Below, in pieces: positions 3,001-53,814 of a DNA stretch of 64,000 bases. This DNA comes from Lytechinus pictus (taxonomy: Eukaryota), in the NCBI RefSeq assembly GCF_037042905.1, contig NC_087245.1:33110001-33174000 (forward strand), written 5' to 3'. The translations under genes and the position numbers were made by a program. A model generated the notes under the pieces. It was given only the letters and a program-made list of their open reading frames with translations. It searched no databases and had not been told where the DNA came from. Position 1 is the stretch's first letter. The number at the start of each line of letters is the position of its first letter.

Positions 3001-4745
3001 CAAGCAAACATGTGCTTGATGACATAAATATCTTTCTCATATTATTTCAATAATATGATGTTGACATGGTTTTCAAGCATTTTATACATTGTTCCCTTTA
3101 CCATTAACATCATGGTTTTGACTATGTATTCATGGATGTTACATATCATGAATAGAACAAGTCATGTGATAAATGTTTCAGAACATATTCTTATTCCTCA
3201 AAGCACTGTCCAAGCTACTTAGAAATAGTAATAACAATCGATTTGACAGCAGGTACTGTTTGACACACACCCACATTAAGGTTTATGTCATACAAAGGCT
3301 TCCAAACAATACCAAACTCATATAATACAATTAAGAGTTGTGGAAAACGGAACCTCTTCCAAAAGTTTATTTCAAATCATAATTATGCTTGCCCTTCGTG
3401 GCTAAAAGTGAATCTTTAATTAATGTAGATAGATACTGATTTACATGATTATATTATACCACTGCATGTGTTAATAACCTCACCCACCATGAATTTATAA
3501 TGATTAAAATACAGAAGATGGATAGAGAATTTCTTGTTATGTAAGTTAGAAATACCAACTGGGGCCTTGTTTCATAAAGTTATGCATGAGTTTACAGATG
3601 AATATAGAACATGACATGATTTAATGTGAGCTGAAACCCCTCCACCCCCCTCAGATTTTTTTGAAAACCATTTTTTTTTGGGCTTGTCAAATTGTCATTG
3701 GATGAAAACCCTTTTTTCCTTGCTTGCTTGTCAAATTTTCATTCAACTTGAAACCCCTATACGCTACTGATTCAATCTTTGCCAAGAACCTTTGCAAATA
3801 CCTCAATACCATTCAAATCATTTCCCCAAATATGCTTTGCTCAACAGATGTGTGTCATCAGAAAGATTGTTAATAAATTTTCTTGCCAATTTTACAGTTT
3901 TCTGTTAAATCATGCATAGCCTTAAGAACATCATGATGAAACACAACATTGTGACCTTTTATAGCCTATAGCTACGACAGAAATAGGAGAAAATTAAAAA
4001 TCAGTTAAAATACACTCCACTTGTTAGTTAAACATCACCCAATATTCACTACATGTAGTTTTGTTAAATCAAATTAAATGAAGCCCAGCCTGATATGATC
4101 TGCATCATCCTTTATATTTGGGTAAATATTGATAAACGACCAATTACTTACAATCATTAGATGCTGAAGAGTATTTACCACCTAAAATAATGGGTAAATG
4201 ATGGATAAAATAGGTTATGATATACCTGACACCTTGTGGTTTAATTCAATTGACAAAATATTGTAGGTATTTTACAAGAGATACAAATCAATGTTAAAGT
4301 ACTCAATAAAGTTATAAGCAGAAATAGGATACAGTGACTACTTTCCAAAAGAATAATTCTCAAAATAGTCAATTTTAACTTGGCATTTGGTTGGGACATG
4401 GGGTAATCAGAGGGGGGGGGGTGGGGTTGGAAGGTAGATAGAAAATCTGGATGGGGGAAGCCAAGTGGAGTTAGGGTGTGCTGGTAGATGATCTGGTCAC
4501 AGTACTGCATGGGCGAGGTGGGGTTGGGGGGGGGGTGGTTGGGGGTAAACTTACCCATATACCCAGAAAGACGAGCAATATGGGTAAGGCCAACTCATGT
4601 TACAAGGGATTGGTCAGGGTGGGGTTAGGGGGGGTAGGAGGAGACAACATAAAACTGGTAAGAAATGGCTAGGGCTAACTCAGTTATAAGGGTGTGGTCT
4701 AGGTGGGGTGGGGTGGGGGGGGGGAGAAGAAGAGGTAAACCTTAC

Positions 4746-4919: not shown

Positions 4920-6463
4920 CTGTGGAAAGGGGACGAAAAAAGACAGAAAGAAAATTATATTAATGATCTCTTTTCTCTTTAAATAGTGAGGAATTGATAG
5001 GTAAAATACCACTCATATTCATATGAAGCATGTGGCAAATATTGTGAGAACTTCAGGTACTCCTGAATTTAAGTAAAGAAGGGAGCAGGTGGCAAAATCT
5101 TTCGGTAAGAATAAGAAACACAAAAATTTTCAATGTGTTCAGTAAGATTAACATTGAAAAAAAAAAAACCTTTCAATGAAAAGTTCATTGAGATTATAAA
5201 TAAATGTTTTCTATTTTCATGACAGTCCTTTTGGCTCATGTAATGCTGTTCAATCTGAAAAAAAAAGGCAAATGAGAGGAACAATAAGGGGACAGAATGA
5301 GAACAAAAGAAAGAGAACAAAATAGAGAAAGATGCATAGAGATATAGAAAGGTAACAAAAGTGAGAGGTAGAGAGAAAGAGGGAGAGAGAGGGGGGTGGA
5401 AGTGCTAAATCGTCTATCACAATACATTTTCCACCAAGTATAAGATCATCCTCAAGTCGAGGATTTACCAGTAATAGCATCTACAGGCAGACATGATCAA
5501 TTTCCTGTTCCAGGGGAGGAATATGCACAAAAAAGAGAGCTAGTCTATGGCTTACTTTAACAGACACACACAAGAGGGGAGCAGGTGGCTGAGGTCTTAT
5601 TTACAGGGGAGAGGGTAGCTAGATGTGATCCCAAATAATAAACTTCACTATGATGTTATATTGATGGATCAAATGTTGGAGGTAGGGAAGCTATCTACAA
5701 GAGATATGAATGTAGTATCTGTTGATGATTCTGAAACAAGGGCTGCGGAAGGGGGGGGGGGGGCTGAGTTGAAAGTGGGGAGCTAACCATGTTAAACATA
5801 ACAATCAGATAGTCATTTTTACTTTTTTATACAGTGGGGGTGGGGGCTGAATCCTCACTAGCTCCCCAGGTTCCAGGGCCCCTTTGAAAATATAGATATA
5901 TACTGCATAGGAGAAACATGGGTGGGTGGGTGGATGGATGGATGCATTGATAGACAGATTAACTGAGAGAGAAAGCTTGCAAAGAAGGGTAGAGAAAAGA
6001 GAGGAAAAGAGTGAGGCTAGGTAAAAAGAGGGAGGGAGTGATAGAGAAAGAAAAAAGTGGGTGTATATGTTCCATTTCTTTTCATCAAAACTCAATAAAC
6101 AAAAACAACTCCAACTGACCTAATAATGTGTAATTTAAGTCAAAGAATCAAACGGTCAAACATGATTGTATCAGGTCTTTCAAGAAAATATATACGGTTT
6201 CTGGAACTCAGCCTATATACCACATAGCCAAATGACCATGAAAATGTTAAAACGGTTTCTGGAATAAAGTCCCAAAATATTTGCTTTATAAAATCAAGGG
6301 ATGGAGGAGAGTAGTGCAATCACCTCCAAACTTCGTGATAAAACTGATTTCAAAAGGATTAATGAAAGCTAATCTAAAATCTCCCCATTTATGATCCAAT
6401 CTATAGAGGATCTGAAGTGAATAAGAACATGCACAAATATTTGATGAATTGCTATTATCATAT

Positions 6464-6949
6464 TGTAACATCCCAGAATTAAATAGTGTAATACTGCCAA
6501 TGTATTGTAATTTTGGTTATAACTTGTAATATGTATTGCATGTAGTTTGGTATAATCTACACTGGGCAGTTCTTTAATATAGTTTTCTTAGAATAATCCA
6601 TGACTAATTCCCTCTGTCCAGTGCAGAGATTGTTCTGTACACTTCGCTATTGGAAAGAGAAAGTAGAAAGTCTTAAAGTCATCTCATAGGAATGTTGTGG
6701 TCACCTGTGGAAGGGTGGAGGCAGAGAGAATCTGAATGAAGAAGATTATATCCTATTCATTCCATCTCACACCACCTTTGAGACAACATCTAGAGAGAAG
6801 ACATCTTAATATATTTTCAACACTTGATTTTTCCATGTCGAATCCAATCCATTAGGGGGTTTTTGTTATTCTTCTAAATAAAGTATGGCATCAAAAGAAC
6901 CTAGACCGCAATTCTGAGTCGTATATTCATCTCAATTTTGTGTGTCACA
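6464..6949 (+). repeat. 5' LTR (486 bp, intron-less form)
   Basis: 6464-6857 is identical by eye to 12668-13061; 6858-6949 matches 14464-14555 with 5 differences; AATAAA at 6877-6882; PBS follows. Confidence 0.96.
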
Positions 6950-6953
6950 TAAA

Positions 6954-6971
6954 TGGCGTAGTCGGCAGGAT
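6954..6971 (+). promoter_or_regulatory. Primer-binding site for tRNA-Ser
   Basis: TGGCGTAGTCGGCAGGAT is the reverse complement of ...ATCCTGCCGACTACGCCA, the 3' 18 nt of metazoan tRNA-Ser(AGA/TGA type) as I recall it; 4-nt spacer TAAA after the LTR. Confidence 0.9.
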
Positions 6972-7412
6972 GTCTACGTAACCCCCTAAGGAGTAAGACG
7001 AAGAGATTGCTGATCATCATTTGAGAGACCGTATCCGATCTTGGAGAGGCTGGACTCTTGGGAACTCTGAAGAACAGAACAGGATGTATGCTAGCTGCGA
7101 CCCCCAGGATCAGAACTGATGGACCAAGCGGATTAATGTTAGAGCAAGTGACTGATCAGAAGCAAGTTCAGCGGAACGTGTGAAATGCCAAGAGTGGACA
7201 TTGGAAAAACTATGAACGGACAATGAACATTGATGAAGAAGACTATTATATGGGACTACGAATAGAGACATGTGTGATGTAACATTGTTTTAAATTATTT
7301 CATACGTGTCTAAACTCTCAGCTTACCTTAAGAGATCTATGAATGTGATATATAGATATATATAGCTGTATTTTTCGATAGATCTCCCTTCTGTGCATCA
7401 CAGGGTTTAGGT

Positions 7413-8306
7413 ATGGACGTGCAGGAGCTCAAAGAGGAAATCGAGGCGCTGAAGGCGGCACTGAAGGCCAGAGAGGTGAAGGCGGAGGAGACTGGGAAGG
7501 TGCAAGCTGCCAGGCCGGTCTACGTAGCTCCAGGAAGGCGCCTGGAAGTCTTCGCGGGTAGGCCTACTCGCCAATCGGACCAGGGAGTCCATGATTGGGT
7601 AGCCGGTGTCAGGGCCCAGCTAGAGCTCAGAGGCATCAAGGGAAAGGAAGCAGCGGCTTTCATCCGAGAATACCTCGAAGGTGATGCCAGGAGGGAGGTA
7701 AGCGGGAGGGGAGAAGATATAAAAGATGACCCTGAATCGATCTTTTCCGTATTAACCAAAGTATTTGGTGACGGAAATTCACTACCAAGGCTCCAACAGA
7801 GCTTTTACTCATTCGAACAGGGACCTTCTTTTGACCTTCTGAGCTGCTCTCTACAGTTGGTAGACCTGTTCGACAGAATGGTTCAGCTGGATCCTACCCT
7901 CAAGGTCCAGCGCGAGCCATCTCTGAAGAGCAGGTTTGCCGAGGCAGTGAGGGATGAGGCTCTAAGGAGGGAGCTGAGGAGGCTTAATATAGAGTCTCCG
8001 CAGCTTTCTTTCTTTGAGCTTCGAGATAGGGCTCTGGAGTGGCTAGGACCAGTCCAGACAAAACGGAAGGACGCTTCGGTGAGGACCATGGTTGCGGACC
8101 CGGAAGTGATGGAGCTGCTGAAGAAACAGGCCGAGCAGATGGAGCGGCAGCAGAAACAACTAGACAAGATTAATGCGATCTTGTCCAGGCGTCAACCCCG
8201 GAAGACTCCACCTGGTGATGGGAAATGTTTCAACTGCGGCGAAAAGGGGCATTTCCAGAAGGACTGTAGAAAGCCAAAGAAGGAGAACCCAGATTTAAAC
8301 GGGTAA
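7413..8306 (+). CDS. gag: Gag (297 aa): N-terminal coiled coil, capsid, CCHC zinc knuckle
   Basis: ATG-started ORF downstream of the PBS with C-terminal CFNCGEKGHFQKDC (CX2CX4HX4C). Confidence 0.95.
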   Translation: MDVQELKEEIEALKAALKAREVKAEETGKVQAARPVYVAPGRRLEVFAGRPTRQSDQGVHDWVAGVRAQLELRGIKGKEAAAFIREYLEGDARREVSGRGEDIKDDPESIFSVLTKVFGDGNSLPRLQQSFYSFEQGPSFDLLSCSLQLVDLFDRMVQLDPTLKVQREPSLKSRFAEAVRDEALRRELRRLNIESPQLSFFELRDRALEWLGPVQTKRKDASVRTMVADPEVMELLKKQAEQMERQQKQLDKINAILSRRQPRKTPPGDGKCFNCGEKGHFQKDCRKPKKENPDLNG

Positions 8307-8352
8307 CTCCCACCGTCAAGAGCCTGACGGTGGGTGGGTCAGTTGACGGCTC
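8294..8352 (+). promoter_or_regulatory. -1 ribosomal frameshift signal: slippery heptamer plus stem-loop/pseudoknot
   Basis: T TTA AAC (8294-8300) is correctly phased in gag; 10-bp perfect stem CCCACCGTCA (8309-8318)/TGACGGTGGG (8325-8334); loop GAGCC is complementary to GGCTC (8348-8352); pol is in the -1 frame and open from the slip site. Confidence 0.9.
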
Positions 8353-11300
8353 AATTCTCTTACAGAGAGCAGTAGGAGATTGTCCAGAGGTCATCCTCGA
8401 CCTTGGATCCGCAAGATGTGTCAGGTGCTTGATAGACACAGGAGCACAGGTATCGACTGTGACTGAGGCATTTTTCAGGAAATACCTCAGCCACGAGTCG
8501 ATGGTAGATGTGTCTAGCATCCTCAGCATCAGCGGAGCCCAAGGACTTACAATCCCCTACTGTGGATACGTCGAACTGACAGTTCGGGTGCTTGGAAGGA
8601 GCTTTCACAACATGGGCTTCCTTGTTGTGAGGGACCCTCCCAAAGCATTGAGTGATAGAAAGAAGCGAGTCCCTGGAGTAATCGGTTCGAATGTCTTGAG
8701 AGACATGCGGCATGAACTGCGCAACGAGCTTGGGGAGGATTTCCTAGATAAGTTCAAGGGTGAGAGAGACGCTACTTGGGCTAGTGTCTTGGCCTTGTAT
8801 GAGGAAATCTCCTGCGTGAATCTCACGACCAAGCTTGGTGGGCTGGGTAGAGTTGCCGGGACGGGACCAGTATTGCTCCAGGGAAGGTCTCTGCAGACAT
8901 TGCAGGTTTCGGTAAGGCCTGCAAGGAGGGGGGAGATTCGTACTGTGATTGTCGAGGAAATCCAAGGAGAACATCTCCAGCCTGGCATCAAGGTAATATC
9001 TTCCTTCCTCCAGGTGTCCGAGAATGGCCTAGTGAATGTCCCTGTGTTGAATCTCTCAAACAGAGACATTTACATCCATCCAAGGACACCAATAGGGATC
9101 GTCAGCGATGCTTCTGAAGTCAACCGACAGGCAAGGCAACCAGCAGTCTGGGTTGAAGAGCATCGACAATCCTCATCTCCTGCGGTCGAACAAATACTTC
9201 AGAGGATGCAGCTAGGAGACATCTCCAAGGAGCAGCATAGAGCTCTTGAGGAGCTCATAGGGAAGTATCTGGACGTCTTCAGTCAAGATGAGGATGACAT
9301 CGGCCTATGTAAAGATGTGGAACATAGAATCTATACAATGGATGATGTTCCCGTCAAGGTCCCACATAGGCGGATCCCACCGCATCATTGGCAAGAGGTA
9401 AGGGACTACCTGAAACAATATCTTGACAAGGGTGTCATAAGGGAATCGTCAAGCCCTTATGCAGCCCCGGTGGTTCTGGTGAGGAAAAAGGATGGCAAGC
9501 TGAGGTTATGCGTTGACTATCGTGCTCTTAACACTAAGACGCATAAAGACGCATATCCTCTGCCAAGGATCGAAGAGGCATTAGAAGCATTGAGAGGAGC
9601 TCGCTTCTTCTGCAGCTTGGATCTTGCCCATGGATTCCATCAGATCCCGGTAGCTGAAAGGGATATCCAGAAGACGGCTTTCCGTGTTGGTACTGGTGGG
9701 TTGTATGAATTCGTAAGGATGCCTTTCGGTTTATGCAATGCACCAGCTACTTTCATGAGGCTAATGGATAAGGGGTTCGGCGATCAGAACTTCCAGACGA
9801 TTCTGACTTACCTGGATGACATTCTTGTGTTCGGACGAGACTTCGATGAAACCCTTCAAAGGCTCGAGATGGTCCTTGGGCGTCTTCGAAAGATGAACCT
9901 GAAAGTCAAGGTCGAGAAATGTCACCTCTTCAAAAGGAAACTCAAATATTTGGGTCATATGGTTGAAGAGGGGGGCATCTCTCCTGATCCAGACAAGGTA
10001 AGGTCCATCCAAGAGTGGAAGACTCCCGAGAACGAGACTGAACTTCGGTCATTCCTTGGACTGGCCGGGTATTATCGGAGGTTCGTTCCCCGATTTGCGA
10101 CCATTGCGGCACCCCTTCATAATCTGGTAGGAGGAGTGCAACAGAAGAAGAATAGTCGCAATGGCAAAAAAGGGAAGGAATCCAACACTAGGAAAGTGGT
10201 CAACAAGAAGTCAGTTGCAGAGGCTTGGGATGACAGCTGTACCAATGCGTTCCAGGAACTCAAGGACCAGCTGACATCCGCGCCCTTGCTAGGTCATCCT
10301 GACTTCAAGAAGCCGCTTATCCTAGAGACTGACGCTAGCTTCAATGGACTCGGAGCTGTACTATCGCAGAAGCAAGATGGTCGGCTTGTTGTTCTTGGGT
10401 ATGCCAGCAGAGGACTACGGCCCCATGAAAAGAACATGAACAACTACAGTAGTATGAAATTGGAACTTCTTGCTCTTTATTGGGCAATAACAGAGAAATT
10501 TCGTGATGTACTACTGGGGGCAGAGTTTGTTGTTTTCACAGACAACAATCCTCTAAGCTACCTGCAGACAACAGCCAAACTTGGCGCGACAGAGATGAGA
10601 TGGCAAGCAGATCTTGCTCAGTTTAATTTCAAGATCGAGTTCAGATCTGGCAGGCAGAATGCTAATGCAGATGCCTTGAGCAGAAAGACTGAGCATGGGA
10701 TCGAGCAAGGGAGACTTGAAGAAGTTGAAGTGAGTCTCCAAAGCCACCCTGCATCAATGTCAACGCCAATACCATCAATGCTTGCTGCGAGAGTAGAGGA
10801 GGTCCTTGAGGTTAGAGACACAACCCAACCTGAGGAAGGAGCAGCTTTATCTACCCTTCCTACCCTGCCAAGGGAAGAATTGGCAGCTCTGCAAAGGAAT
10901 GACTTAGTCATTAAGAGGGTGCTAGCCTACATGCAGAAAGGAGATAGCCCGACCCCGAAACAGATGGCTAGAGAGGGTAAGCCAGTTCGGAAACTGTTGA
11001 GGCAGTGGGAGCGTCTCTTACTTGTAGATGGCATTCTGCACCGCAGAGTTACGCTGATGGGGCATCCAATCAAGCAACTTCTGGTTCCAGAAGCCTTGAA
11101 GGAAAGGATCTTAAGTGCCCTCCATGACGAAGTTGGCCACCAAGCTTCTGAGAAAACAACGAAGTTAGCAGTTCAACGCTGCTATTGGCCAGGAATGGAA
11201 GCCGAGATCCGTGCCTACTGTGACAAGTGCCAGCGTTGCCTACTTTCCAAAGCAGGTAAGAAACTTCACCCTAAGATGGGATCACTGATTGCGAGAGAAC

Positions 11301-12574
11301 CTCTGGAAGTACTCGCGATGGACTTTACAGTGCTAGAGCCCAGCTCTAGTAGAGTGGAGAATGTCCTTGTACTAACCGATGTCTTTACGAAATACACACA
11401 AGCATTTCCTACTAGAGACCAGAAAGCTAGTACAGTTGCAAAGGTGCTCGTCAATAATTGGTTTGTAAGGTTTGGCGTACCTAAGCGACTGCACAGCGAC
11501 CAAGGTCGTAATTTTGAGAGCAGTCTGGTAAAGGAACTTTGCCGAGTGTATGGAGTACATAAGACGAGGACCACCCCTTATCACCCAGAGGGCAATGCGC
11601 AGTGTGAACGGTTCAATCGAACTATGCACGACAGACTGCGTGCTCTTCCGCCAGAGAAGAAGAAAAGATGGCCAGAATATCTCCCGGAGCTGGTGTATGC
11701 TTACAACTGTACACCACATTCTTCCACAGGATATTCCCCATATTATCTCTTCTTTGGTAGAGAGCCGGTGTTGCCCATCGATCACCAGCTAGGATTTCAA
11801 GACTCAGACTCGGACTCAGACTGGTTAGAAGGTCATCATGGACGCCTGCGAATTGCATTTGATATGGCAAGGCAGATGACCGAGAAGGAAGCGTTGAGAA
11901 GAAGGGAGAGGGTAAACCGTACCGCCGAAGACACAAGCCTTACTATTGGGGCTAGAGTGTTCACCAAGAATCGCATCCTCGGGCGAAATAAAATTCAGGA
12001 TGCCTGGAGTGACACTCCGTATAAGGTGGTAGCGAGACCCAATCCCGAGGGGAATGTGTATGTCATCGAACCGCTTAGAGGTGATGGTTCACAAAAGACA
12101 GTCCATCGTCGAGACCTATTAGATGGACGTGGACTGGTAAAAGACATCAATCCTGATCGTTTCAATGATGTTACACATGAACCTCAAGAAACTACCCTTC
12201 CTTCCGACAACCGATCTGACGAAGAAGATGAGCTGAGGGAGGTACTCTTTCGAAGTAAGACTCCGCCACCTGTAGGTAATACTGACCCTACAGATTGCAT
12301 TCCAGTGGGTACTTCCGAAAGAGTAGGGGAGCACCAAGCTCCTCCGGTTGTACCAGATACTAGGCAGCAGGTAGCAGAAGGGAATGGTTCCTCGGCTACA
12401 GAACCTGATACAGCTGAAGTTACCGGTTCAGACCACGAGGTCGAGCCTGTAGTTCCAGTCAGGAGGTCTGCAAGGTTGCAAGGTAAACCGCCTACCCTTT
12501 CATCGGAAATTGTGGCGGATATAACTAGATCTCATTTGTTGTTTATGCAAATGATGTCTAATCCGAATCCATGA
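8300..12574 (+). CDS. pol: Pol polyprotein (protease, RT, RNase H, integrase), expressed as Gag-Pol by -1 frameshift
   Basis: LIDTGAQVS protease (DTG at 8435); RLCVDYRALN, MPFGL and YLDD (9809-9820) RT; ETDAS...ELLAL...TDNNPL RNase H; HDEVGH...CDKC zinc finger and MDF/HSDQG/QCERFN DDE integrase. No stops. The ORF-track start at 8330 is a GTG, not the real start. Confidence 0.96.
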   Translation, partial: RVTPTVKSLTVGGSVDGSILLQRAVGDCPEVILDLGSARCVRCLIDTGAQVSTVTEAFFRKYLSHESMVDVSSILSISGAQGLTIPYCGYVELTVRVLGRSFHNMGFLVVRDPPKALSDRKKRVPGVIGSNVLRDMRHELRNELGEDFLDKFKGERDATWASVLALYEEISCVNLTTKLGGLGRVAGTGPVLLQGRSLQTLQVSVRPARRGEIRTVIVEEIQGEHLQPGIKVISSFLQVSENGLVNVPVLNLSNRDIYIHPRTPIGIVSDASEVNRQARQPAVWVEEHRQSSSPAVEQILQRMQLGDISKEQHRALEELIGKYLDVFSQDEDDIGLCKDVEHRIYTMDDVPVKVPHRRIPPHHWQEVRDYLKQYLDKGVIRESSSPYAAPVVLVRKKDGKLRLCVDYRALNTKTHKDAYPLPRIEEALEALRGARFFCSLDLAHGFHQIPVAERDIQKTAFRVGTGGLYEFVRMPFGLCNAPATFMRLMDKGFGDQNFQTILTYLDDILVFGRDFDETLQRLEMVLGRLRKMNLKVKVEKCHLFKRKLKYLGHMVEEGGISPDPDKVRSIQEWKTPENETELRSFLGLAGYYRRFVPRFATIAAPLHNLVGGVQQKKNSRNGKKGKESNTRKVVNKKSVAEAWDDSCTNAFQELKDQLTSAPLLGHPDFKKPLILETDASFNGLGAVLSQKQDGRLVVLGYASRGLRPHEKNMNNYSSMKLELLALYWAITEKFRDVLLGAEFVVFTDNNPLSYLQTTAKLGATEMRWQADLAQFNFKIEFRSGRQNANADALSRKTEHGIEQGRLEEVEVSLQSHPASMSTPIPSMLAARVEEVLEVRDTTQPEEGAALSTLPTLPREELAALQRNDLVIKRVLAYMQKGDSPTPKQMAREGKPVRKLLRQWERLLLVDGILHRRVTLMGHPIKQLLVPEALKERILSALHDEVGHQASEKTTKLAVQRCYWPGMEAEIRAYCDKCQRCLLSKAGKKLHPKMGSLIAREPLEVLAMDFTVLEPSSSRVENVLVLTDVFTKYTQAFPTRDQKASTVAKVLVNNWFVRFGVPKRLHSDQGRNFESSLVKELCRVYGVHKTRTTPYHPEGNAQCERFNRTMHDRLRALPPEKKKRWPEYLPELVYAYNCTPHSSTGYSPYYLFFGREPVLPIDHQLGFQDSDSDSDWLEGHHGRLRIAFDMARQMTEKEALRRRERVNRTAEDTSLTIGARVFTKNRILGRNKIQDAWSDTPYKVVARPNPEGNVYVIEPLRGDGSQKTVHRRDLLDGRGLVKDINPDRFNDVTHEPQETTLPSDNRSDEEDELREVLFRSKTPPPVGNTDPTDCIPVGTSERVGEHQAPPVVPDTRQQVAEGNGSSATEPDTAEVTGSDHEVEPVVPVRRSARLQGKPPTLSSEIVADITRSHLLFMQMMSNPNP

Positions 12575-12654
12575 CTTTTTATTGATCACTGTGTTGTAGT
12601 TGTTTAAGTATTATATTTTTTTATTGTGTAAAAGTTGTCAGAGACGACAACATC

Positions 12655-12667
12655 GAGTAGGGGAGAA
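12655..12667 (+). promoter_or_regulatory. Polypurine tract
   Basis: GAGTAGGGGAGAA directly abuts the TG start of the 3' LTR. Confidence 0.88.
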
Positions 12668-14555
12668 TGTAACATCCCAGAATTAAATAGTGTAATACTG
12701 CCAATGTATTGTAATTTTGGTTATAACTTGTAATATGTATTGCATGTAGTTTGGTATAATCTACACTGGGCAGTTCTTTAATATAGTTTTCTTAGAATAA
12801 TCCATGACTAATTCCCTCTGTCCAGTGCAGAGATTGTTCTGTACACTTCGCTATTGGAAAGAGAAAGTAGAAAGTCTTAAAGTCATCTCATAGGAATGTT
12901 GTGGTCACCTGTGGAAGGGTGGAGGCAGAGAGAATCTGAATGAAGAAGATTATATCCTATTCATTCCATCTCACACCACCTTTGAGACAACATCTAGAGA
13001 GAAGACATCTTAATATATTTTCAACACTTGATTTTTCCATGTCGAATCCAATCCATTAGGGGTAAGTCGAATCACAATTCACATTTTAAATAATGATATT
13101 TATAAATGTTTTGCTTTAACCATTGTTGTTTAAAATGGATTAAGAATATCATCTATCATCTATTTTTGTTCTCTAAATATTTAGGATAAGTTAGTACTTT
13201 TTCTGTGAGATATATCTATGTTCAATTTCGTTTTGATCCTTTAAATGTGTTTTCTATTTCTTTTGTTATGAATGTTCCTTAATGTATTATTTGATATACA
13301 TGTGCTACATTTGATTTGATTTCATATGTTGTGTTAAGACAAAGGTCTAGAAGTATTTTATCGAACATGATTCGCGTGGATATTTTGCATCAATTACTCA
13401 AATTGAGGTTTACATAATTCCGTTGATTTAAATAATCCAATCATGCTTCATAAACTTCTTTGTTCGTATTTCTTGGAGGAGAAGTGATATTATTGTTGTG
13501 TTTTACTAAAAGTAACATTTGTTATTTTATCGGTATTATTGTGCTAAATAATATTAGTTTCATCTAATTATTTCTGTATGGTCAGAAATTGACTTTATTT
13601 GCTTAGCATTATATTTATGATTTATATCCAAAATGATTACGTTAGATTCATATGTAGATATTCATACTTTGCATTGATGTTTGCGTAGTTTAAGTTTATA
13701 AGAAACTTAGTACCTTTAAGGCTGTTGCTAGGCGACAGACAGCATTCTGATACATATTGGGGCTGTTGGCCAGTTGCATCATTCATAGTAGTTGGCAGTG
13801 TGACGTCATGAATCACGGCACATGCTGCAGAAGTTCTGTGGAGCTTCATGGTCATTGTTTAGGTTAGGGGTGATAGGTCACTCAGGAATGTAGTATTATT
13901 GTCTAGGGACTAGCCCTGTCCACACTGAAACAACTTGTTATCTAGTTGCACTGTGCTTTGAGGAGTACTAGGGTCTGTTCATACTTGAGATCTAATCTGA
14001 TTTAATTATTAATCCGATTTAACTTTAGTCTGGTTTAACTTTAATCTTTTACTTGTATTTCAAGTTAGGGTTTTGTTTTTCATAATTCATTATTATTCAA
14101 TGATATTATTGACAATCAGCTTGAACTATTTATTATTATTTTAATGAAATTCTTTTTGACAATCATGTTTATTTATCATTACATATATTCATTTAATCAT
14201 TCATGTTATCTTATAACTTGATATATAATTTCTTTGATGTTTATTCTTTGTATCTCTTTCCTTCTTCTCATTTTCTCTCTATTCTATTATACGTTTATAT
14301 AACGCCTTATTTTGTCGTGTTATTGCATATTGGTTGAGTGAAACATGTAATGTGATGATAGTAGAGTCGAGCTACCAGCTTACTACTTTTATTACTGATT
14401 GTTGTATTGAAACTCTTGATGTATATGACAATTTATGATTCTTTATTTTCTATTGTTTTCCAGGGTTTTTGTTATTCTTCTAAATAAAGTATGACATCAA
14501 AAGAACCTGGACCGCAAATTCTGAGTCGTTATTAATCTCAATTTTGTGTGTCACA
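12668..14555 (+). repeat. 3' LTR (1888 bp, intron-containing form)
   Basis: Two blocks homologous to the 5' LTR (12668-13061 and 14464-14555) separated by 1402 bp; AATAAA at 14483-14488; ends TGTCACA followed by the TSD. Confidence 0.94.
13062..14463 (+). other. Spliceosomal-type intron inside the 3' LTR
   Basis: Begins GGG|GTAAGT, ends TTCTTTATTTTCTATTGTTTTCCAG|GG; T-rich; its removal reproduces the 5' LTR junction ATTAGGGGGTTTTTG exactly. Confidence 0.88.
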
Positions 14556-17500
14556 ATATTTTGGACGTCAGAATATGGAAGGGCAAATTGTGATTTTGAG
14601 TTTGTATTCCTACTACTATATAAACAACCTTAATGTTCATCAATCACTTATCAGAAAGGATGATGAATAATGTACCCTTCTAATACATATCTGACATTGT
14701 TTAGCTCGCTATAATAAAAGGTAAATCTCTTATTGTCAAGCTCGTTATACCTGAACAAAACATCGGAAAATTAATTTATCAAAACTGATCAATTTGTTTT
14801 GTTTATGTAATAGTAGACACAATAAAGTATGTACGGATTATCCTTTTAATTTAATTTCATGATTACGATGACCTTTAACGGTATCCCAGCATGCCTTGCA
14901 GGGACAACATCACAATCTAATTTTGCTTGTAATGAAAAGCTCGATCAATTAAGGTCTATATCCGATACGGTAATGAATGAGGAATGCTCATTAATGTAGC
15001 AAGGATGAGAGCGATGAATCTACCGTTCAACTTGGCAGGGAATTTCATTGTTGCTATGCATTTCAACCTTGCACGAGGACATGAATGTTTCAACAATGTC
15101 TTGAGTAGCTTATTACAATTTCTTGTAGAGAAAATCAACATCAAGGACTTGTTGCATGAAAGTTACTATTATTGTAACTTCCATGGAATTCATGATTTTG
15201 AGTGGCTTAGAGCAATGTTACCATGGTATTCACTACTTAGTAGTTATTGGATAGCAAATTTACCAGAATGGTAATATGCAACAGGCCCCAGAAATTACTT
15301 CAGGTTGCATATGCTGATACCCCCTCCCGCTGTGTTTTTGTGTGGTCCCATCAATGTGTTTTTGTGTTGTCTGTTGTGAAGTTCAGGTGTTACCGTATAT
15401 GTCATGTGCCAAGGGCATGATATTAATGAGATAATCACCCTAAAGTGCATCAAACTATGACTATCTGTACTACCTTCGTTAGGATGGTGGAGTGTTATCT
15501 ATTAACCCTTTTCAGACTGGTGTCAAGCAAATCTATATTTATGTGGATTATGCCTATAGGAATGAGGGAGTCCTGTAGGCTACTCATTGGGTAAACTGCA
15601 TGTTACAAATTACTTACATGCATGCAATAAACATGTAGTTTATAAATCAGAAGTGACCCCTTTCCCTTATAAATTTTCTGCACCCCAGTCTTATTACCTC
15701 TTACTTCAAATGAAAGTGAAAACCGAAATACTACTTTTTCATCAGATTTACTCCTCAACAAATGACTATAAAAGATGCTTAAAGATTATATTCATACTTT
15801 GATAAATTTTCAAAAAAATGACTTTTAAATAAATTGCATTTACTGTTCCTTATTCTTTATGTATAGAATTATATAGCAGAAAAGGTCCCAATTTTTAACT
15901 TTAAGAAAATCTCTATCCTATTTGATGTTCACAGCTAATTTGGACAAGTCATGTGCGGAACAGAAGACTCTCTTGATCAAGGATCAGATTCTGATTCCTA
16001 ATGACAGTGTGACACATCTCCATTCTGGGGACTTTCACACCTACCTCATCGGTAAAAAAAAAACCCTAACATTTGCCAATCTGAAAGTAAATATTTGTAA
16101 CACCAATGAAGGAAAGTACTTGAAAATCAGTAGGTTTACTTGTCAAAATGATGAAAATCTTAAAAAAGAATTCATGCAAGGTCAAGGAGACGTTTGCGAT
16201 TGTAACCACATTATATATATATATAAAAACTTTTGTACTTTGACACGAAGAACCTGCATCATTTGCTATAGGAGTGTGGGATGGGAACCAATGTAAGAGT
16301 TCAAGAACTTGTGAATGCATGAAATGAATTATCAGATATTTTTCTGATTGGGTGGGTGTGAGTGTATCTTCCTGATCCCCATGACAGGATATCACCATAT
16401 CATCTCTGATGTTCCAAAAATCTGCTCCAGATTCTTTTAAGCAACAACGGTTTGAGCAGGTGTTCTTTGACTTGTACTTTCATGGATTAAAAAGTATACT
16501 AAAGCTACAAGAGGTAAGATGATCTTTATTGTCCTTTTCTTCATGTCATATTTACTTTTTTTTTTACTGTGATAATTAACATAAATGATACAAATCTCCA
16601 TTGTTTTTCTTCATGCCTCTCTCTTGCATTTCAAGTGTTTTATAATGAGAACTTCAAGAGATAAAGACAAGTCCCTATCATCTCATTGTCTCATTCATTT
16701 AGCATGTTTTAAGAAATATGACACGCTCCTCATCGTCTTTTCTTCTCTCATGAGTTTATAATGTTTTCTTAAGTGAGATCACTTCTTTGCATCAATTTCA
16801 CTTTTAAATTAAAAAAAATCCCTGATGATATAGGTCTGAATAAAACATACAAAGGGAATACTTTTTGTGCATTCTTTTAATAAATTTTCTATTATATCAG
16901 ACATGCCAGTCACCACATTCTACTACTGTTTTAAAGAAAAAATATGACCAAAGCCCCAGGTTATCCTGTAATAGTCCTAATGTTAACTTAACATTGAGAA
17001 GAATTCCATTAACTAACAAAAAACAATAAGAGAATTTTGAAATCTACAGTAACAGTGGAAACTTCTACACCTTTCTAATGACTATCATAACATTTGTTTT
17101 TAAAAACACGTTTTGAAACATTTGCATCAAAAGCTTTTGAACTGAAAGCCAGCGTTCCATAGCTTGACAATGTTATAATATGGAATGAAATAAAAATAAC
17201 AATCAAGCTACACTTACTAATCAGAAAAATGGCAATGAATTCATTACATTCTCCCTTTAAAGAAATAATGTATTCTCTCTAGCATTTCCTATTGTCAGGC
17301 ACCTGCTCATAATCCTAATCCACAAAAACCCTTGTCAGGTCCAGACCCCTGAATTCATGTTATCCAGATATTAATCAACTTGCGCATCTCATTTGTCATA
17401 CCAAATTAAAGTAAATCCACTGAAATTTCATATATGTAAAACAAAACATCCGCAAATGCTTAGTTTCAATTATGGTAAATTCAAAACATATTGCATAAGC

Positions 17501-20337
17501 ATATACAGAACACGGACCAATTACCTGTCTCATATTACAAAATTTTGCATCATTTTGTAACCAATTTGGCAATTTAGTTGCCATTAATCCTCAACCATCT
17601 CGCGAATTAGCATGGCTTTTGATCCCCCGGTCTGTTGACATTTTAAATATGTTTGCTCCAATTATGTCTCGGCCTGAAACATGTTACCAAAAACCAAAAC
17701 ACGATTCATGTTGCATATCATTAATTTGCTTGAATGACTCAATATCCATTCATTTTTCAAAAACATTTTTATCTGTGACAAATAACCGATTCACATTTTG
17801 TTTAAATGTTATGTATGCAAGCCACATGGCTTCACGCTCATGGAGTTTCATAACGTCATTCATGAATTCTAAATGTTTGTTCCAACCTTTGGATGTGTTT
17901 ATGTAGTAGTCGACTTAAGACCCTGACCTAGTTTCATGCATAGCAATAGACATATTAATTAGATTACTTGGGTATGATGACATACCTTTCGGCATTGATA
18001 AATAATTAGTTTGGTAAACAGAGCATGCAATTAAGGATGCAGCTATGTGAGCTGCTTGCTTAACAGATAATTATATAACATAAGTATGGTTTTTGCTCTC
18101 ATTTGAATATTAAGACTTATTCAAGAAATATGTGCCCCCAAACAAATAATTGTTTCTCTCTCCCTCATGTATTTAAATCTAAATGAAATTTTGAAATCTG
18201 ATAGCTATATGCTTGTTTAATTTTTTCTCAGATGAAAATTGTTGGGCAAATCCAAAAAGAAATGGAGAAATAGAATCCTAATTCTGATCTTGGCTAGAAT
18301 ACTTATTACCTGACATTTAAAGAGCAGAGATAGAAATATGAATACGGACAGATGAAATTGCCTGTCATATCGACACTAGAATGAAATGATGCTTTACAAA
18401 CCGACATGTCGGCATATCTCTCGGTTAAACTAAGGATTAGATCCATAAATGCATGACTAAACCTTGCATAACTGAAACATTACAAGGGATAAATGCCTGT
18501 TTCCTTTAGTTACAAACTTAAAAATAAATATAATCGTTATTTTCTCACACAGGATAAGGGAGGGTAAGAAGACAGATAAGATAAAAGTCAACAGCTGGGG
18601 GCCATAATACATGGGGGCTTAGCAAAGGGAAGCATTTGATATTCTTTCATGAATGTTCATTTCTATACACAGAGAGGATAAAGTATGTCAGATTGATTTT
18701 GGTGAAGCTTTGTAAATGTAATTTAATTTCTTTTAGATGTAACGGGATGTGATTATGTATGTTTGGGAGGGGAGGAAAGGGGGCATAAAAGAAGCCCCTC
18801 TATAAGTCACAGGATGCATCTCATCACGCAGCAATAATTTAAATTTGAGATTTTTTTTTTGTCTTTCGCGGAGGAGTCATTAAAATAAAGTTCTTTCAGT
18901 CTGGGGATATGTCTTGAGGAAAGGGATGGATAATGAGGACAACGTGAGTACTCTATTCTAGACAGACAAGTTTAATATAAAAACAAGCTAAAGTTAAGGA
19001 TTGAGAAAAAGGCCTAATAAAGGAGAATATCAGAGACAAGTGATTAAAGATTTATTAACTTAGATGCAGGCTAGAGAAAGACACTTGGGAAATCAGTTAG
19101 GTACTGGAACATAAAGCTGACAAAAACATGAAGAACAGTAACAGTGAAAGATTGAGAAACAGTAACAAATAAGGAGAGAAAAGAAAAGAAAAAAAATAGA
19201 AAAGGGGAAATAGGAAGGTACCATATCCTAAAACCACAGGTGGAATAAGCTGCAAGCAAAATATCACCAAGAAGGATGAGGAAATATTTTTAAAAAATTA
19301 TATCTTTTAATTCTAGAATTTCTTTTTTAAAGAGCAGCGTAGGTGATGGTGTAATGCCATCAGTAGTGTATCAATTTCAGATATATTCCATATGTTAAAG
19401 AGGAATATCTTAGATGATTTTTAATTACAAGCTTTGAGGAAGGATTGAATGATGCTATCATGGAGGCCCACTAACCGATGTGATAATGGATAACATATTG
19501 TTTTACCAGATCAATTTAAAGGGTAATCAAAAAGATATCCATGGCAGAAATATCTACAAGAGACTTACATTAATCTTAAAAACTTTCTAGGAAATAGGGG
19601 GTATTTGCAAAAGCAGAGTATTTTCGTATAATCATCAAATTTCATTCAATCATCTCCAGATTGGAATAGGTAAATATTAATCTTATGATTGTTAACACTG
19701 CTATATCTAAAGCTCATCCAGTGACTATGCAAAATGTTGAGCTGAATTGTAAAAAGGCTTGAAAATAGCAGATAGGCTTTCAAGCTGTGTGCTTGCTTTC
19801 AATTTCCAGAATAAAAAACTACCGCTTACCCTCCAGCTAATATCATTTGATTCCCGTACATTACCAGACTAATGAAGCAATTGAGTCATTAACCAATTTC
19901 AGGTCAAGAAATTTAATATCTGGCCTAGATGTCTCAATCAGTAATGAAGACAAATATTCAGAACAATATTGGCCTCTCCAGGGACTGGATACTTACTATG
20001 TGCACTGCATAAAACACATTAGATTTTTTATAATTCAATAATAAAGAGTTCATTTTAAAGTTTATTGCCAAAGAACAAAGACATCCCATAGAAAGACAAT
20101 GATGATGTATTTCTATGGCCTCTGACACCACGCCGAGATTTGAACCCCCAACCTTCCTCTTTGTGAACCAAGGGAACTAACCACTCCTCAACTATAACCC
20201 TCACATCCTTTACTCACTTATTAACCCACTTGGTACTGAATTATGTTTGTTCTATTGGTAATGTACATGGAACCATACTGTTCTAGTATGCAGTTATGAG
20301 TTGCTCCCAGGCCCAGATCCTGAACTGAAAGGATTAA

Positions 20338-20917
20338 AGGACAAGTCCACCCCAACAAAAAGTTGATTTGAATAAAATGAGAAAAATCCAACAAGCATAA
20401 CACTGAAAATTTCATCAAAATTGGATGTAAAATAAGAAAGTTATGACATTATAAAGTTTTGCTTAATATCACAAAACAGTTATATACACATCCTGGTGAG
20501 TATGCAAATGAGGAGACTGATGACATCATCCACTCACTATTTATTTTGTATTTTATTATATAAAATAGGGAATATCCTATTTTCTCCTCATTGTCAAGTG
20601 AAACAACAATTAATTCCTCCCTGAACATGTGGAATTAGCATTGTTTAATACTATATGGTTTAGTCAAGGTGGTCCTTACTGTCAAATCTGTATAAAATGA
20701 AATATTGTGTAATTCAAACAATAAAACACAAAAGAAATAGTGAGTGATGGACCTGTCACTGAGTTGCGCATATCACTGTTCTGTGAAAAATAAGCGAAAC
20801 TTTAAAATGCCATAACTTTCTTATTTTACATCCGAGTTTGATGAAATTTTCAGTGTTATGCTAGTTTTATTTTCTCTATTTATTCAAATCAACATTTTTC
20901 TGGGGTGGACTTGTCCT
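20338..20917. mobile_element. Non-autonomous DNA transposon with TTAA TSD (Kolobok-type termini)
   Basis: TTAA|AGGACAAGTCCACCCCA ... TGGGGTGGACTTGTCCT|TTAA, with long imperfect subterminal inverted repeats and no ORF. Confidence 0.88.
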
Positions 20918-21841
20918 TTAAACAATTTTTAATCTAATGTTAGGAACAGAGCATATACTATATTCCCTGGTTAGATACACTATGGTTATAAAAACCTTAA
21001 AAGTACAGCAAACTAAAAAAACTAAAAACTAAAAAAAGGTACCAACTTGGCCCAGATCCAAGTATTTAAGAAGAATTGAGCCATGGGATCATCTCCCTTA
21101 AGTTATGTAACTTTTCCTTTCTTCCTCTTACTTAAAGTAAGTACTTAAGCTGAGGATAAGGATTACTGGGCAAACATTTGTCTGTAATGAAGGCAGGTGA
21201 AAGCTTTCAAAACTGAGAATAAGCTCACACTCTGACGTTCATTTCAGAGTTTCATCGAGTTCAATAGAAAATGGGTCATGTAGGATGTATGATCATGTTT
21301 GAAGCACATTTGAAAGAGACAAAGAATGAAAACAGAGAGGGAGAGAGAAGAACGCTTGATTGCAATCTCATGACAGGTGCCTCGGCTTAATTTGGTTAAA
21401 GATTTAAGATTAGATTATATGCACTATTAAAAGAATGGTTCATTAGTATAGATTTTAAAAAATTGGTTTAATATGAAGTTTAAGATTTACATTTTGGTAA
21501 AGGATTAAAATTATAGAGACTGAGAAATTGTCTTGTGGCTATATGTAATTTCCTATTAAAAGAGACACCATTGCCAGCGAATGGGCCAAATAAACCAAGT
21601 GGCAGAAACAATGATTCTTGAGATGATTGACTATTATCATGATTATAACTTCCTTCTAGTTTAAACATATAGCACCCTTTTTTAAATGGGATAAAAAGCA
21701 TATTTTAAAATATTTTAAAGTACTTTTCCAGAATACGGTCAATGACCTTCATCTGCTCTTGTGAAATTGTAATCCTAGAAATTATTTAGTGTAGATCTTA
21801 AGTATATTTGAAAGGGACAGAATTCACGAGATATTTCTTAC

Positions 21842-33953: not shown

Positions 33954-34547
33954 AGGGGAATCCAACCCAAATAAAAACTTGTTTTATAAGGAAAAGTAAA
34001 ATCAGACAAGTTGATAGGTGAAAGTTTGAACAATATTGGACAAACAACAAGAAAGTTATGAATTTTTAAAGTTGTAAATATTGGTAATCACTACACCCAT
34101 GGAGACTTCAAATTGGCCGCATATGGGATGTCATAGTGATGTAAGGCAAGGACTACTCTTCCATGTACTCCAATACATATTATTGCCAAAATGTCATTTT
34201 TCCCAAAAGTTTTATTTCAAATTATATTTTTCTTTCATGAAGACATAAAACAATATACTACCTGGGTTATATGTTAGATTACTGCCCCAGGGGATTGGGT
34301 ACTTAGGAGAAAACCACAAATCCCTGATAATAAAGTACATGGCCTATGGGAAAGTTGTCCTTGCCCCTTGTCATAATTTTCTTACTCAGTTGCCAATTTG
34401 AAATCTACATAATATTAGTGATCTCAATTTTAAAACAGCTATAATTTTCTTATTGCTTGTCCGATTACTTTCAAACTTTCACCATTCTGTTTAATTGATT
34501 TTTCTCCTTCCCAACACAACATTTTATGGCCAAGGCTGGATTCCCCT
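33954..34547. mobile_element. Non-autonomous DNA transposon with TTAA TSD (Kolobok-type termini)
   Basis: TTAA|AGGGGAATCCA ... TGGATTCCCCT|TTAA, with imperfect subterminal inverted repeats. Confidence 0.85.
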
Positions 34548-51865: not shown

Positions 51866-51976
51866 ATATGTGCTTAAATACAAAGCAATAATGGATGATC
51901 CTAAAATAATGTTCATTCATTAACCACAAGGGTCTGTTTAATAACAAGTACAGTATTTTTGCTTTATAAAGATTAA

Positions 51977-52377
51977 TACCCCTTTCATAAACCCAATAAA
52001 ACCCAATTATGCGGCTAATAGCAGCATAATTTGGTCGTAAAATCAGAAAAGGACAAGAGTTATCCGCATTATTCTGATGCTGCTATTATCCGCATAATAG
52101 CTGCATCGGGACAAGATTTTGAGTTTATGAACATATTTCCAAAATAATGCGGCTAATTGCCATGGTGCGGTCACAAGGTCACCCTTTTCCAACACAACCG
52201 CATCGGAGGGGGCGTGTCCAGTTGTCATGACGATTATCCGCCTTTTTCAGGACGGGCGCTCGTAAAAATAATGCGGATAATTTTCGGAATTTGTAAACGC
52301 TATTTTTATTGAATTATCCGCATTACTCTTAGGCGGCTAATTGGAGGATAGGTTTTATTGGGTTTATGAAAGGGGTA
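51977..52377. mobile_element. MITE with 27-bp TIRs (Harbinger-like TNA flanks)
   Basis: TAA|TACCCCTTTCATAAACCCAATAAAACC ... GGTTTTATTGGGTTTATGAAAGGGGTA|TGA; internal repeats GCGGCTAAT and TTATCCGCAT. Confidence 0.87.
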
Positions 52378-53253
52378 TGAGTCATTCAATATCAAGTGCT
52401 ATTGGGCGCACCAACATGAATCTATATATAATTATGTCTTGCCGATTCCTAGACTGTATGTTGAGTTGACACAAAGAGTAATAACACCCAACCCCTTCCT
52501 AAAAACTGTTTAATACTCTTGATGTAAAGTCTGTTATGACCAAAACCAAGGTATTGAACCCTCGACTCTCCATGGGGGGGGGGGTGGCTAACCATCTAAC
52601 CACACACTGTTACAAAATACATGCTTTTTTCCTTTTAAATATATGATATGTCAATTAAGTCTCGTTTACGTAAAGGGCCGACCACGGGGTGATAATATCG
52701 AATTAAATTATATTAAAAAGGGTTACTGGGTAATAAGTACATTAGTCACAACAAAAATTGTAGGTCAATATACTTCAATAAACCTCTGAGGGTGGGGGGC
52801 ACTCAAATTATATTTTGATGGGGATGTGCCTCACGAAGCCCTGAAATGGGGGTCTAAGGAACTGACCACAGGGGTAGAATACAGGGTCTTGTTCCAAAGG
52901 GTGCCAGATATATCCATTTGAGTTGGAATAAATGTCAATATAACAACAGCTTCTATTCTCTCCCTACTTCAAATTCCTTCCAAATACACAGCAGTACCTG
53001 CTCCCAGGTAATTAAAATGCTTCAAAAGAACTTCCCAAACCCCAAGAACCAAGGATAATACAGGATCAAGGTGGATAGAGTACTCACAATGGAAAAATAG
53101 ATTGATGACTCTTACAATATTACAGGCATTGATCTAATCCAGGACTGGAATAATGGTGTAATAAGGGATTAGTTAAGTGTCCAGAGATGACATGTAAATA
53201 GGTGTATTATAAGACAGGTGGACTATGGATCTATGCAGCATATGTTGGTCATA

Positions 53254-53716
53254 GAGGCTGTTCTCACTACGTTCCTAAAACTAGTTTACTGGGAACCGGT
53301 TCAGAAAGCCAGTTTGGAAGATCGCTTTGCTAGCGTTCTCACTTGATCACACGAAAGTGGTTTTCAAAATCACTTCACGTATAGCGCTCTTGTTGCTATG
53401 GAAACGCTCTCAGTGGGGAGACACGTTTCGCGCGAAATTCGAAACCGCAGCATAGGCATTCTACACCTGTCGTGTGGAGTAGCGCGCTCAAAATGTGCGA
53501 AGATCGCTTCCCGAAGAACGGTTGTGTCCTCACTTACGCTAAAACCACTTTTCCGATGCGAAGCGATCTTGAAAACTACATCGCGAGGTGGTCTTCCAAA
53601 CTGGTTTGGAAGAGCGCTTCCAAGAGCGCTTCGACCGTTCTCACTTAGCGTTAAACTAGTTTCCACTAAACTAGTTTCCACTAAACTAGTTTAAGGAACT
53701 GAGTGAGAACAGCCTC
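53254..53716. mobile_element. MITE with TIRs and internal palindromic motifs
   Basis: TA|GAGGCTGTTCTCACT...TTCCT.AAACTAGTTTA ... TAAACTAGTTTAAGGAA...AGTGAGAACAGCCTC|TA; 15-bp tandem ACTAGTTTCCACTAA near the right end. Confidence 0.87.
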
Positions 53717-53814
53717 TAAGGTAAAACTTAATCAATATCCTGATAGAAATACTAATCAAACGTATTCAACAACTGTTGTAGACAATATTGTGTCACAGCA
53801 AGGGTAATAATATT

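Follow-up and report, generated by a model that had tools for sequence, protein, structure and literature searches.

The window analysed here, i.e. the whole 64-kb stretch of DNA to which all positions refer (every feature being given on the + strand), contains a complete Ty3/gypsy element at 6464-14555, and the present analysis concerns this single copy. It is flanked on both sides by the TSD ATAT (6460-6463 and 14556-14559) and delimited by two LTRs of the TG...CA type, of 486 bp on the 5' side (6464-6949) and 1888 bp on the 3' side (12668-14555). The PBS lies four bases past the 5' LTR (6954-6971), starts with TGG, recurs with at most three mismatches in 12 of 62 related loci and is presumably a match to tRNA-Ser; for PBS comparison, tRNA genes were sought in 60 loci (out of 80 listed among 88 matches) and none was found. 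The gag frame is open from stop to stop (7356-8306, 316 aa) and encodes a CCHC knuckle; its match to PNMA is weak and below threshold (E=0.012, 15.5 bits for a cut-off of 25), and we take a Gmr1-like / PNMA-related clade as the candidate affiliation of the element. A heptanucleotide TTTAAAC (8294-8300), candidate site for a -1 frameshift, is located in the overlap between gag and the pol frame, the latter being also open (8270-12574, 1434 aa) and displaying Pfam matches to RVT_1 (residues 404-564), RT_RNaseH (653-785) and integrase (939-1157), together with a protease-like motif picked out by eye in the translation and no env. A PPT (12655-12667) abuts the 3' LTR. The protease-RT-RNase H-integrase order, the TG...CA LTRs, the PBS, the PPT and the short TSD identify the element as Ty3/gypsy. 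No other copy of the LTR or of the internal region is present within the 64-kb window, which also harbours four MITE-like inverted-repeat elements of 440-590 bp (20334-20921, 33995-34505, 51959-52395 and 53252-53718).

The 3' LTR corresponds to the 5' LTR plus a segment of 1402 bp (13062-14463) displaying the characters of a GT-AG intron, with a GTAAGT donor, a pyrimidine tract and a CAG acceptor whose score exceeds that of shuffled sequences (p=0.008); it is T-rich on the strand of the element (44% T, 27% A). Deleting this segment reproduces the junction of the 5' LTR exactly, confirming the short LTR as a precise spliced version of the long, intron-bearing one. Exon 1 (394 bp) is identical in the two LTRs (6464-6857 and 12668-13061), and exon 2, which presumably comprises the end of R together with U5, extends over 6858-6949 with AATAAA at 6877 in the 5' LTR and over 14464-14555 with AATAAA at 14483-14488 in the 3' LTR. 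This exact intron loss implies that an RNA step is needed somewhere. Insertion of an introner or a transposon into the 3' LTR was considered and rejected, as the 5' LTR is the exact join of the exons with no leftover duplicated bases, and no inverted repeat of at least 40 bp occurs at the 1402-bp segment. Self-priming, either at the splice junction or of the Tf1 type, was likewise rejected, the longest complement of the PBS region to the element's own LTR or junction being of 7 nt and not located at the junction.

Re-alignment of the two LTRs returned the counts given in the preliminary description: no difference in the first 394 bp and three substitutions plus two one-base indels in the last 92 bp, all of them downstream of AATAAA, with an intact ATAT TSD. 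The substitutions are G6888/A14494, A6903/G14509 and C6928/A14534, and the indels correspond to an extra A at 14516 in the 3' LTR and to A6923, absent from the 3' LTR around 14529. The five differences span only 41 bp (14494-14534), the 30 bp following the acceptor and the final 21 bp being identical; because of the identical stretch after the junction, the switch from one template to the other may be placed at any point between late exon 1 and 14493. Their clustering is significant (Fisher p=2.3e-4, or 5.5e-3 when any 92-bp span is allowed), and a TSD match over four bases has a chance probability of 0.005-0.011.

Four public sequencing runs were compared with positions 6858-14800 of the window, and the figures that follow derive from the contigs or rows listed. 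In run X1 (organism A, of unrecorded library type and possibly from the same individual as the assembly), a contig of depth 2 matches 14501-14800 without any difference. It covers four of the five variant letters of the 3' LTR together with the right flank and thus bridges the right TSD independently of the assembly: the right junction of the element is real, and consensus errors, named in the preliminary description as a reason to abandon its reading, are excluded for these four sites. Another X1 contig, placed on the 3'-type end, continues with TTAATGGCG, which corresponds to the nine letters starting the PBS. This placement suggests that the 3'-type end serves in the 5' LTR of another copy of the family, and this end would therefore be a family haplotype and not the result of decay or error. 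Random mutation, which according to the preliminary description would not cluster in this manner, is thereby ruled out together with consensus error for four of the five sites.

Over the long X1 contigs listed, 76 of 6053 positions (1.3%) differ from the element. At this level of family divergence, the absence of any difference over 394 bp has a probability of 0.007, as does the occurrence of at least five in 92 bp, which indicates that exon 1 came from one source and that the ends represent two haplotypes of more than average depth. The single template postulated earlier for the shared upstream segment is in this respect supported, unrelated copies being unlikely to agree so closely. It is very improbable that the insertion is an old one with LTRs that mutated apart, exon 1 being later homogenised between them and the intron separately lost. 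In plants, conversion within elements occurs often and over long tracts, as far as the accessible part of the source goes (PMC7251063), but the 3'-type end found before the PBS of another copy, the two open reading frames and the divergence of only ~1.3% from the family over the rest of the element argue that the 5% divergence of the ends did not form in place.

None of the X1 pieces listed carries the spliced joint. The depth of X1 climbs toward the 3' end, with values of 114-187 in the intron and averages of at most 69 after 14493; this profile would agree with poly(A) RNA in which the intron is kept, but is given no weight here, contigs being uninformative on RNA ends and RNA level. As a separate observation, the 273 bp that precede the first variant (14221-14493) are exactly those of the deepest X1 contig, the remainder of the intron being ~2% different; conservation or a second crossover within the intron are possible causes.

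The same data bear on an exchange between elements. A crossover between two sibling copies sharing exon 1, one intron-less and the other intron-bearing, or a mis-join in the assembly, would also leave two unlike ends. Siblings may share exon 1 and yet differ in U5, since U5 is reshuffled against U3 at the first transfer, and independent confirmation is confined to the right junction. ATAT is the kind of site that some gypsy integrases prefer, and such a preference would weaken the argument drawn from the TSD. Against these points stand the reality of the right junction, the 0.5-1% chance of an ATAT match absent site preference and the low probability (p=0.007) of 0/394 between copies diverging by 1.3%. 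Searches with the flanks within the window retrieved no repeat spanning the insertion site. On balance, crossover or mis-join appears improbable.

Run X12, from the related organism B and probably a DNA library (an automated guess), includes a contig of depth 59 in which the two exons are joined precisely at the splice sites. The intron reaches depths of 262-404 and the internal region a median of 128, so that by depth the spliced form represents ~13-18% and the intron ~2.3-2.8x the internal region, keeping in mind that summed contig depth does not equal copy number. These values indicate that organism B would usually carry the long LTR and, in a minority of cases, the spliced LTR in DNA form. 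The spliced LTR of organism B also lacks one TAAA unit (joint from 13062 to 14485), which removes AATAAA, possibly as a response to the lost upstream donor or through decay. The raw RNA runs X21 and X22 provided 28 reads each, most of them less than 99% alike, with no joint, start or end among the rows listed, and too thin to bear on splicing; a few intron reads (13218-14277) have a mate orientation opposite to that of the genes and exon 1, in numbers too small for interpretation. An asymmetry inherited by the whole family, with a short spliced 5' LTR and a long 3' LTR maintained by non-standard copying, would explain in one step both the identical exon 1 and the separately evolving ends. This is argued against by the 3'-type end preceding the PBS in the X1 contig, by the excess of the intron over the internal region in X12 with the spliced joint as a minority, and by the order PPT, long LTR, PBS in two circularly assembled relatives (L001 and L010, both collapsed assemblies); we hold such an asymmetry to be highly unlikely.

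Relatives of the element were searched by an alignment-based scan, giving 62 loci that are mostly collapsed short-read contigs; single-protein scans of metagenome and viral contigs returned no loci. Relatives are 60-70% identical to the element in marine invertebrates and ~55% identical in fish. Two gypsy pol relatives (60-63%; L058 and L059) lie inside a Sedimenticola MAG and are probably contamination by host DNA. A distant relative, L022, shows another precise loss of an LTR intron: two of its LTR copies are 89% alike over their first 262 bp and differ by a precise 80-nt GT-AG segment (7286-7365 in one copy, a joint at 269/270 in the other), each copy probably belonging to a separate genomic element. 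Inspection by eye of close relatives revealed a layout like that of the studied element: in L001 (68% RT identity) a donor-like site 134 bp into the LTR followed by ~1.3 kb of T-rich sequence, then an acceptor-like CAG followed by GGTTTT, 32 nt before AATAAA; in L002, a GGG-GTAAGT motif 237 bp into the LTR, i.e. the same donor as in the studied element; and in L005, an acceptor 25 nt before AATAAA. In the short LTR of L018, again by eye, the intron-like part has been lost between 5-bp direct repeats and not at splice sites. At L002 (4802-7394), the pol C-terminus closely resembles that of the studied element, the LTR exceeds 2.5 kb and the contig stops before its end. With a strict rule that was not matched for composition, the layout of an acceptor before the poly(A) signal was found in 5 of 15 families, grouped by the author after three rows without enough sequence or signal were dropped, versus 18 of 273 host sites. 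When a looser score, chosen afterwards, was compared with shuffles matched for composition, 2 of 17 reached p<=0.05 and the combined p was 0.10. The sequences thus suggest that LTR introns occur in several relatives, short of a rule for the clade. Two further observations concern the PBS of these relatives: a second same-strand copy of its first 11-13 bases is found in U5, at most ~70 bp upstream of the PBS, in several related families (L020 at ~3670-3682, L022/L025, L023 and L027), and at least five PBS types occur among relatives at 53-68% RT identity (e.g. L001 at 6112, L029 at 1059, L008 at 6183 and L016 at 1599), which suggests that the choice of primer switched often in this group.

Structure prediction places a hairpin around the poly(A) signal of the 3' LTR (14459-14511). 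In exon 2, most of AATAAA would be exposed in the loop (z of -2.5 and -2.9), and both predicted exon-2 hairpins are preserved in the 5'-type and 3'-type versions despite the five differences, as expected of variants derived from working copies. In the unspliced 3' LTR, the base of the predicted hairpin extends over the acceptor through a C14461-G14509 pair, G14509 being one of the variant sites, and the acceptor has a predicted pairing probability of 0.91-1.0. The predicted duplex has an energy of -12.8 kcal/mol, versus -8.3 with the 5'-type arm (A6903), which is 4.5 kcal/mol weaker. Masking of this degree is also attained in 29 of 400 shuffles and at 5 of the 46 YAG sites elsewhere, and hand-picked acceptors were masked in 1 of 8 plus 0 of 2 cases among the relatives. 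As an after-the-fact idea, masking of the acceptor could explain the retention of the intron as well as the association of the spliced junction with the 5'-type end. A wider proposal, which we find rather doubtful, is that a lineage of marine-invertebrate gypsy elements keeps a terminal intron in R through reverse transcription, that in the studied family the hairpin holds back its splicing with the G/A state at 14509/6903 tuning the masking, that splicing would then frequently be unequal between the ends of one genomic RNA or between two co-packaged RNAs, and that copies with discordant LTRs are a regular product. If true, the intron would naturally label, from within the element, the RNA that served each strand transfer.

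Natural introns of LTR retrotransposons such as Ogre and EVADE lie in the internal region, unlike the LTR intron of the studied element. Regarding HTLV-1, we know of no precise intron loss from one LTR. The HTLV-1 'LTR intron' (bioRxiv 10.1101/2023.01.28.526022) resembles the present case by its splice signals within the LTR and, in the portion of the report available, differs in concerning a retrovirus LTR in a vector context. Precise intron loss as a sign that a spliced RNA has been copied into DNA is established by the TyH3 and mini-Tnt1 reporters (PMC12786077, PMC2923131, both seen in part), where it marks passage through RNA just as it would here; the introns of these reporters are artificial, whereas that of the studied element is natural, within the LTR and mostly retained. 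In the openly accessible literature searched, we found no published description of a gypsy LTR with a natural intron, nor of an element in which a single LTR of the pair is spliced. The natural intron in a gypsy LTR is therefore the newer point, two-template products and uneven LTR divergence being of kinds already known.

Among these known kinds, an intermolecular first transfer that brings together R/U5 and U3 from separate RNAs is established (PMC6894440, PMC2923131), and when two RNAs are copied, U3 and R-U5 become mixed yet the LTRs end up identical, as described in the available text of the same papers. First-transfer recombinants of Ty1, Tnt1, Onsen and HIV-1 (PMC6894440, PMC2923131, PMC5668417, in the parts available) are similar to the studied element in drawing R-U5 and U3 from different co-packaged RNAs of one family; they carry two identical mosaic LTRs, whereas the LTRs studied here disagree and differ in splicing state. 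The fact that two RNAs, too, yield identical LTRs under standard reverse transcription speaks against two-template copying as such, and discordant LTRs need one extra step: minus-strand read-through, intermolecular plus-strand transfer or conversion after insertion. For HIV-1, an intermolecular second transfer has been proposed, from which a provirus would result that produces a U3/R breakpoint in the following generation (Cappy et al. 2017, PMC5651808). If this alternative pathway of LTR generation is read as producing LTRs that differ in R-U5, it is alike; from what the accessible text presents, it was inferred from patient recombinants of a retrovirus with no intron marker, whereas in the present case the discordant copy itself lies in a host genome. 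Culture studies of HIV-1, judging from the excerpts available, found the second transfer to be generally intramolecular.

An ordinary insertion bearing two identical LTRs may instead have been followed by gene conversion, which could have acted in either direction: the 5' LTR received its junction and U5 from the spliced cDNA or the strong-stop DNA of a sibling, or two spliced LTRs were inserted and the LTR of an intron-bearing sibling, the majority form, overwrote the 3' LTR. Donors of both intron states exist in the related organism (X12), the TSD stays intact in such an event, and exon 1 remains identical if the tract stops near the junction. In plants, conversion has been predicted in 25% of LTR pairs, with tracts mostly of 100-1000 bp and cDNA templates cited (PMC7251063); this precedent shares with the studied element a patchy LTR divergence with an intact TSD, and in the part of the paper available no precise intron loss is described, whereas one tract boundary is here the splice junction. 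The tract would moreover have to start near the junction and take all five sites with only 21 identical bp as a distal anchor, and the copy looks too young (0/394) for a long wait before a second event. We regard conversion as possible, albeit not as the probable course.

Most likely, the copy was built from two different members of the family, either during copying or after insertion, and the use of two templates is well supported: the LTRs share their upstream segment and differ only within the presumed R-U5, as would be expected of a two-template provirus. The part of the preliminary description attributing the R-U5 ends to different RNAs is strengthened insofar as these ends come from different family members, the 3'-type end standing before a PBS elsewhere. 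We consider it an evenly balanced matter that the discordant LTRs arose during reverse transcription, taking together the two routes outlined hereafter, since one event would explain the shared exon 1, a boundary at the junction/poly(A) region, which is the place of the first transfer, and the intact TSD. In this scenario, a young gypsy family would have a normal LTR of ~1.9 kb in which a spliceosomal intron shortly precedes the poly(A) signal, usually retained and occasionally spliced out and then copied back into DNA. Two RNAs of sibling elements with different R-U5 haplotypes would have been presumably co-packaged; one template would have supplied exon 1 of both LTRs, one RNA the spliced junction and the 5'-type end in cis, and the other RNA the 3'-type end. 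Along a first route (a), the minus strong-stop DNA of RNA 1 would jump to the unspliced 3' end of RNA 2, the minus strand would then pass the PBS into the spliced leader of RNA 2, and the heteroduplex 5' LTR would finally resolve to the spliced strand; this would require a transcription start upstream of the donor, which is presumed, and the survival of a 1.4-kb heteroduplex loop. Along a second route (b), plus strong-stop DNA would transfer between two minus strands. The intermolecular first transfer with read-through given as an example in the preliminary description is possible, depending as it does on a start upstream of the donor, with intermolecular plus-strand transfer and post-insertion conversion as possible alternatives.

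The studied copy is real and unusual, and the weight to be given to it is modest, as it is a single copy with more than one candidate route of formation. The divergence of LTR pairs is the standard clock for insertion age, and this clock would date the copy at ~1% divergence, in spite of 394 identical bp and of differences that seem to have been imported; the copy is thereby a clean example of the clock failing through the mixing of templates. An intron in an LTR is expected to be purged after one round of copying, and this family mostly keeps it and sometimes loses it exactly. The use of a second RNA in strand transfer has so far been measured mainly in retroviruses, yeast and plants, and the intron state lets a genome census count it for each strand transfer in an animal retrotransposon.
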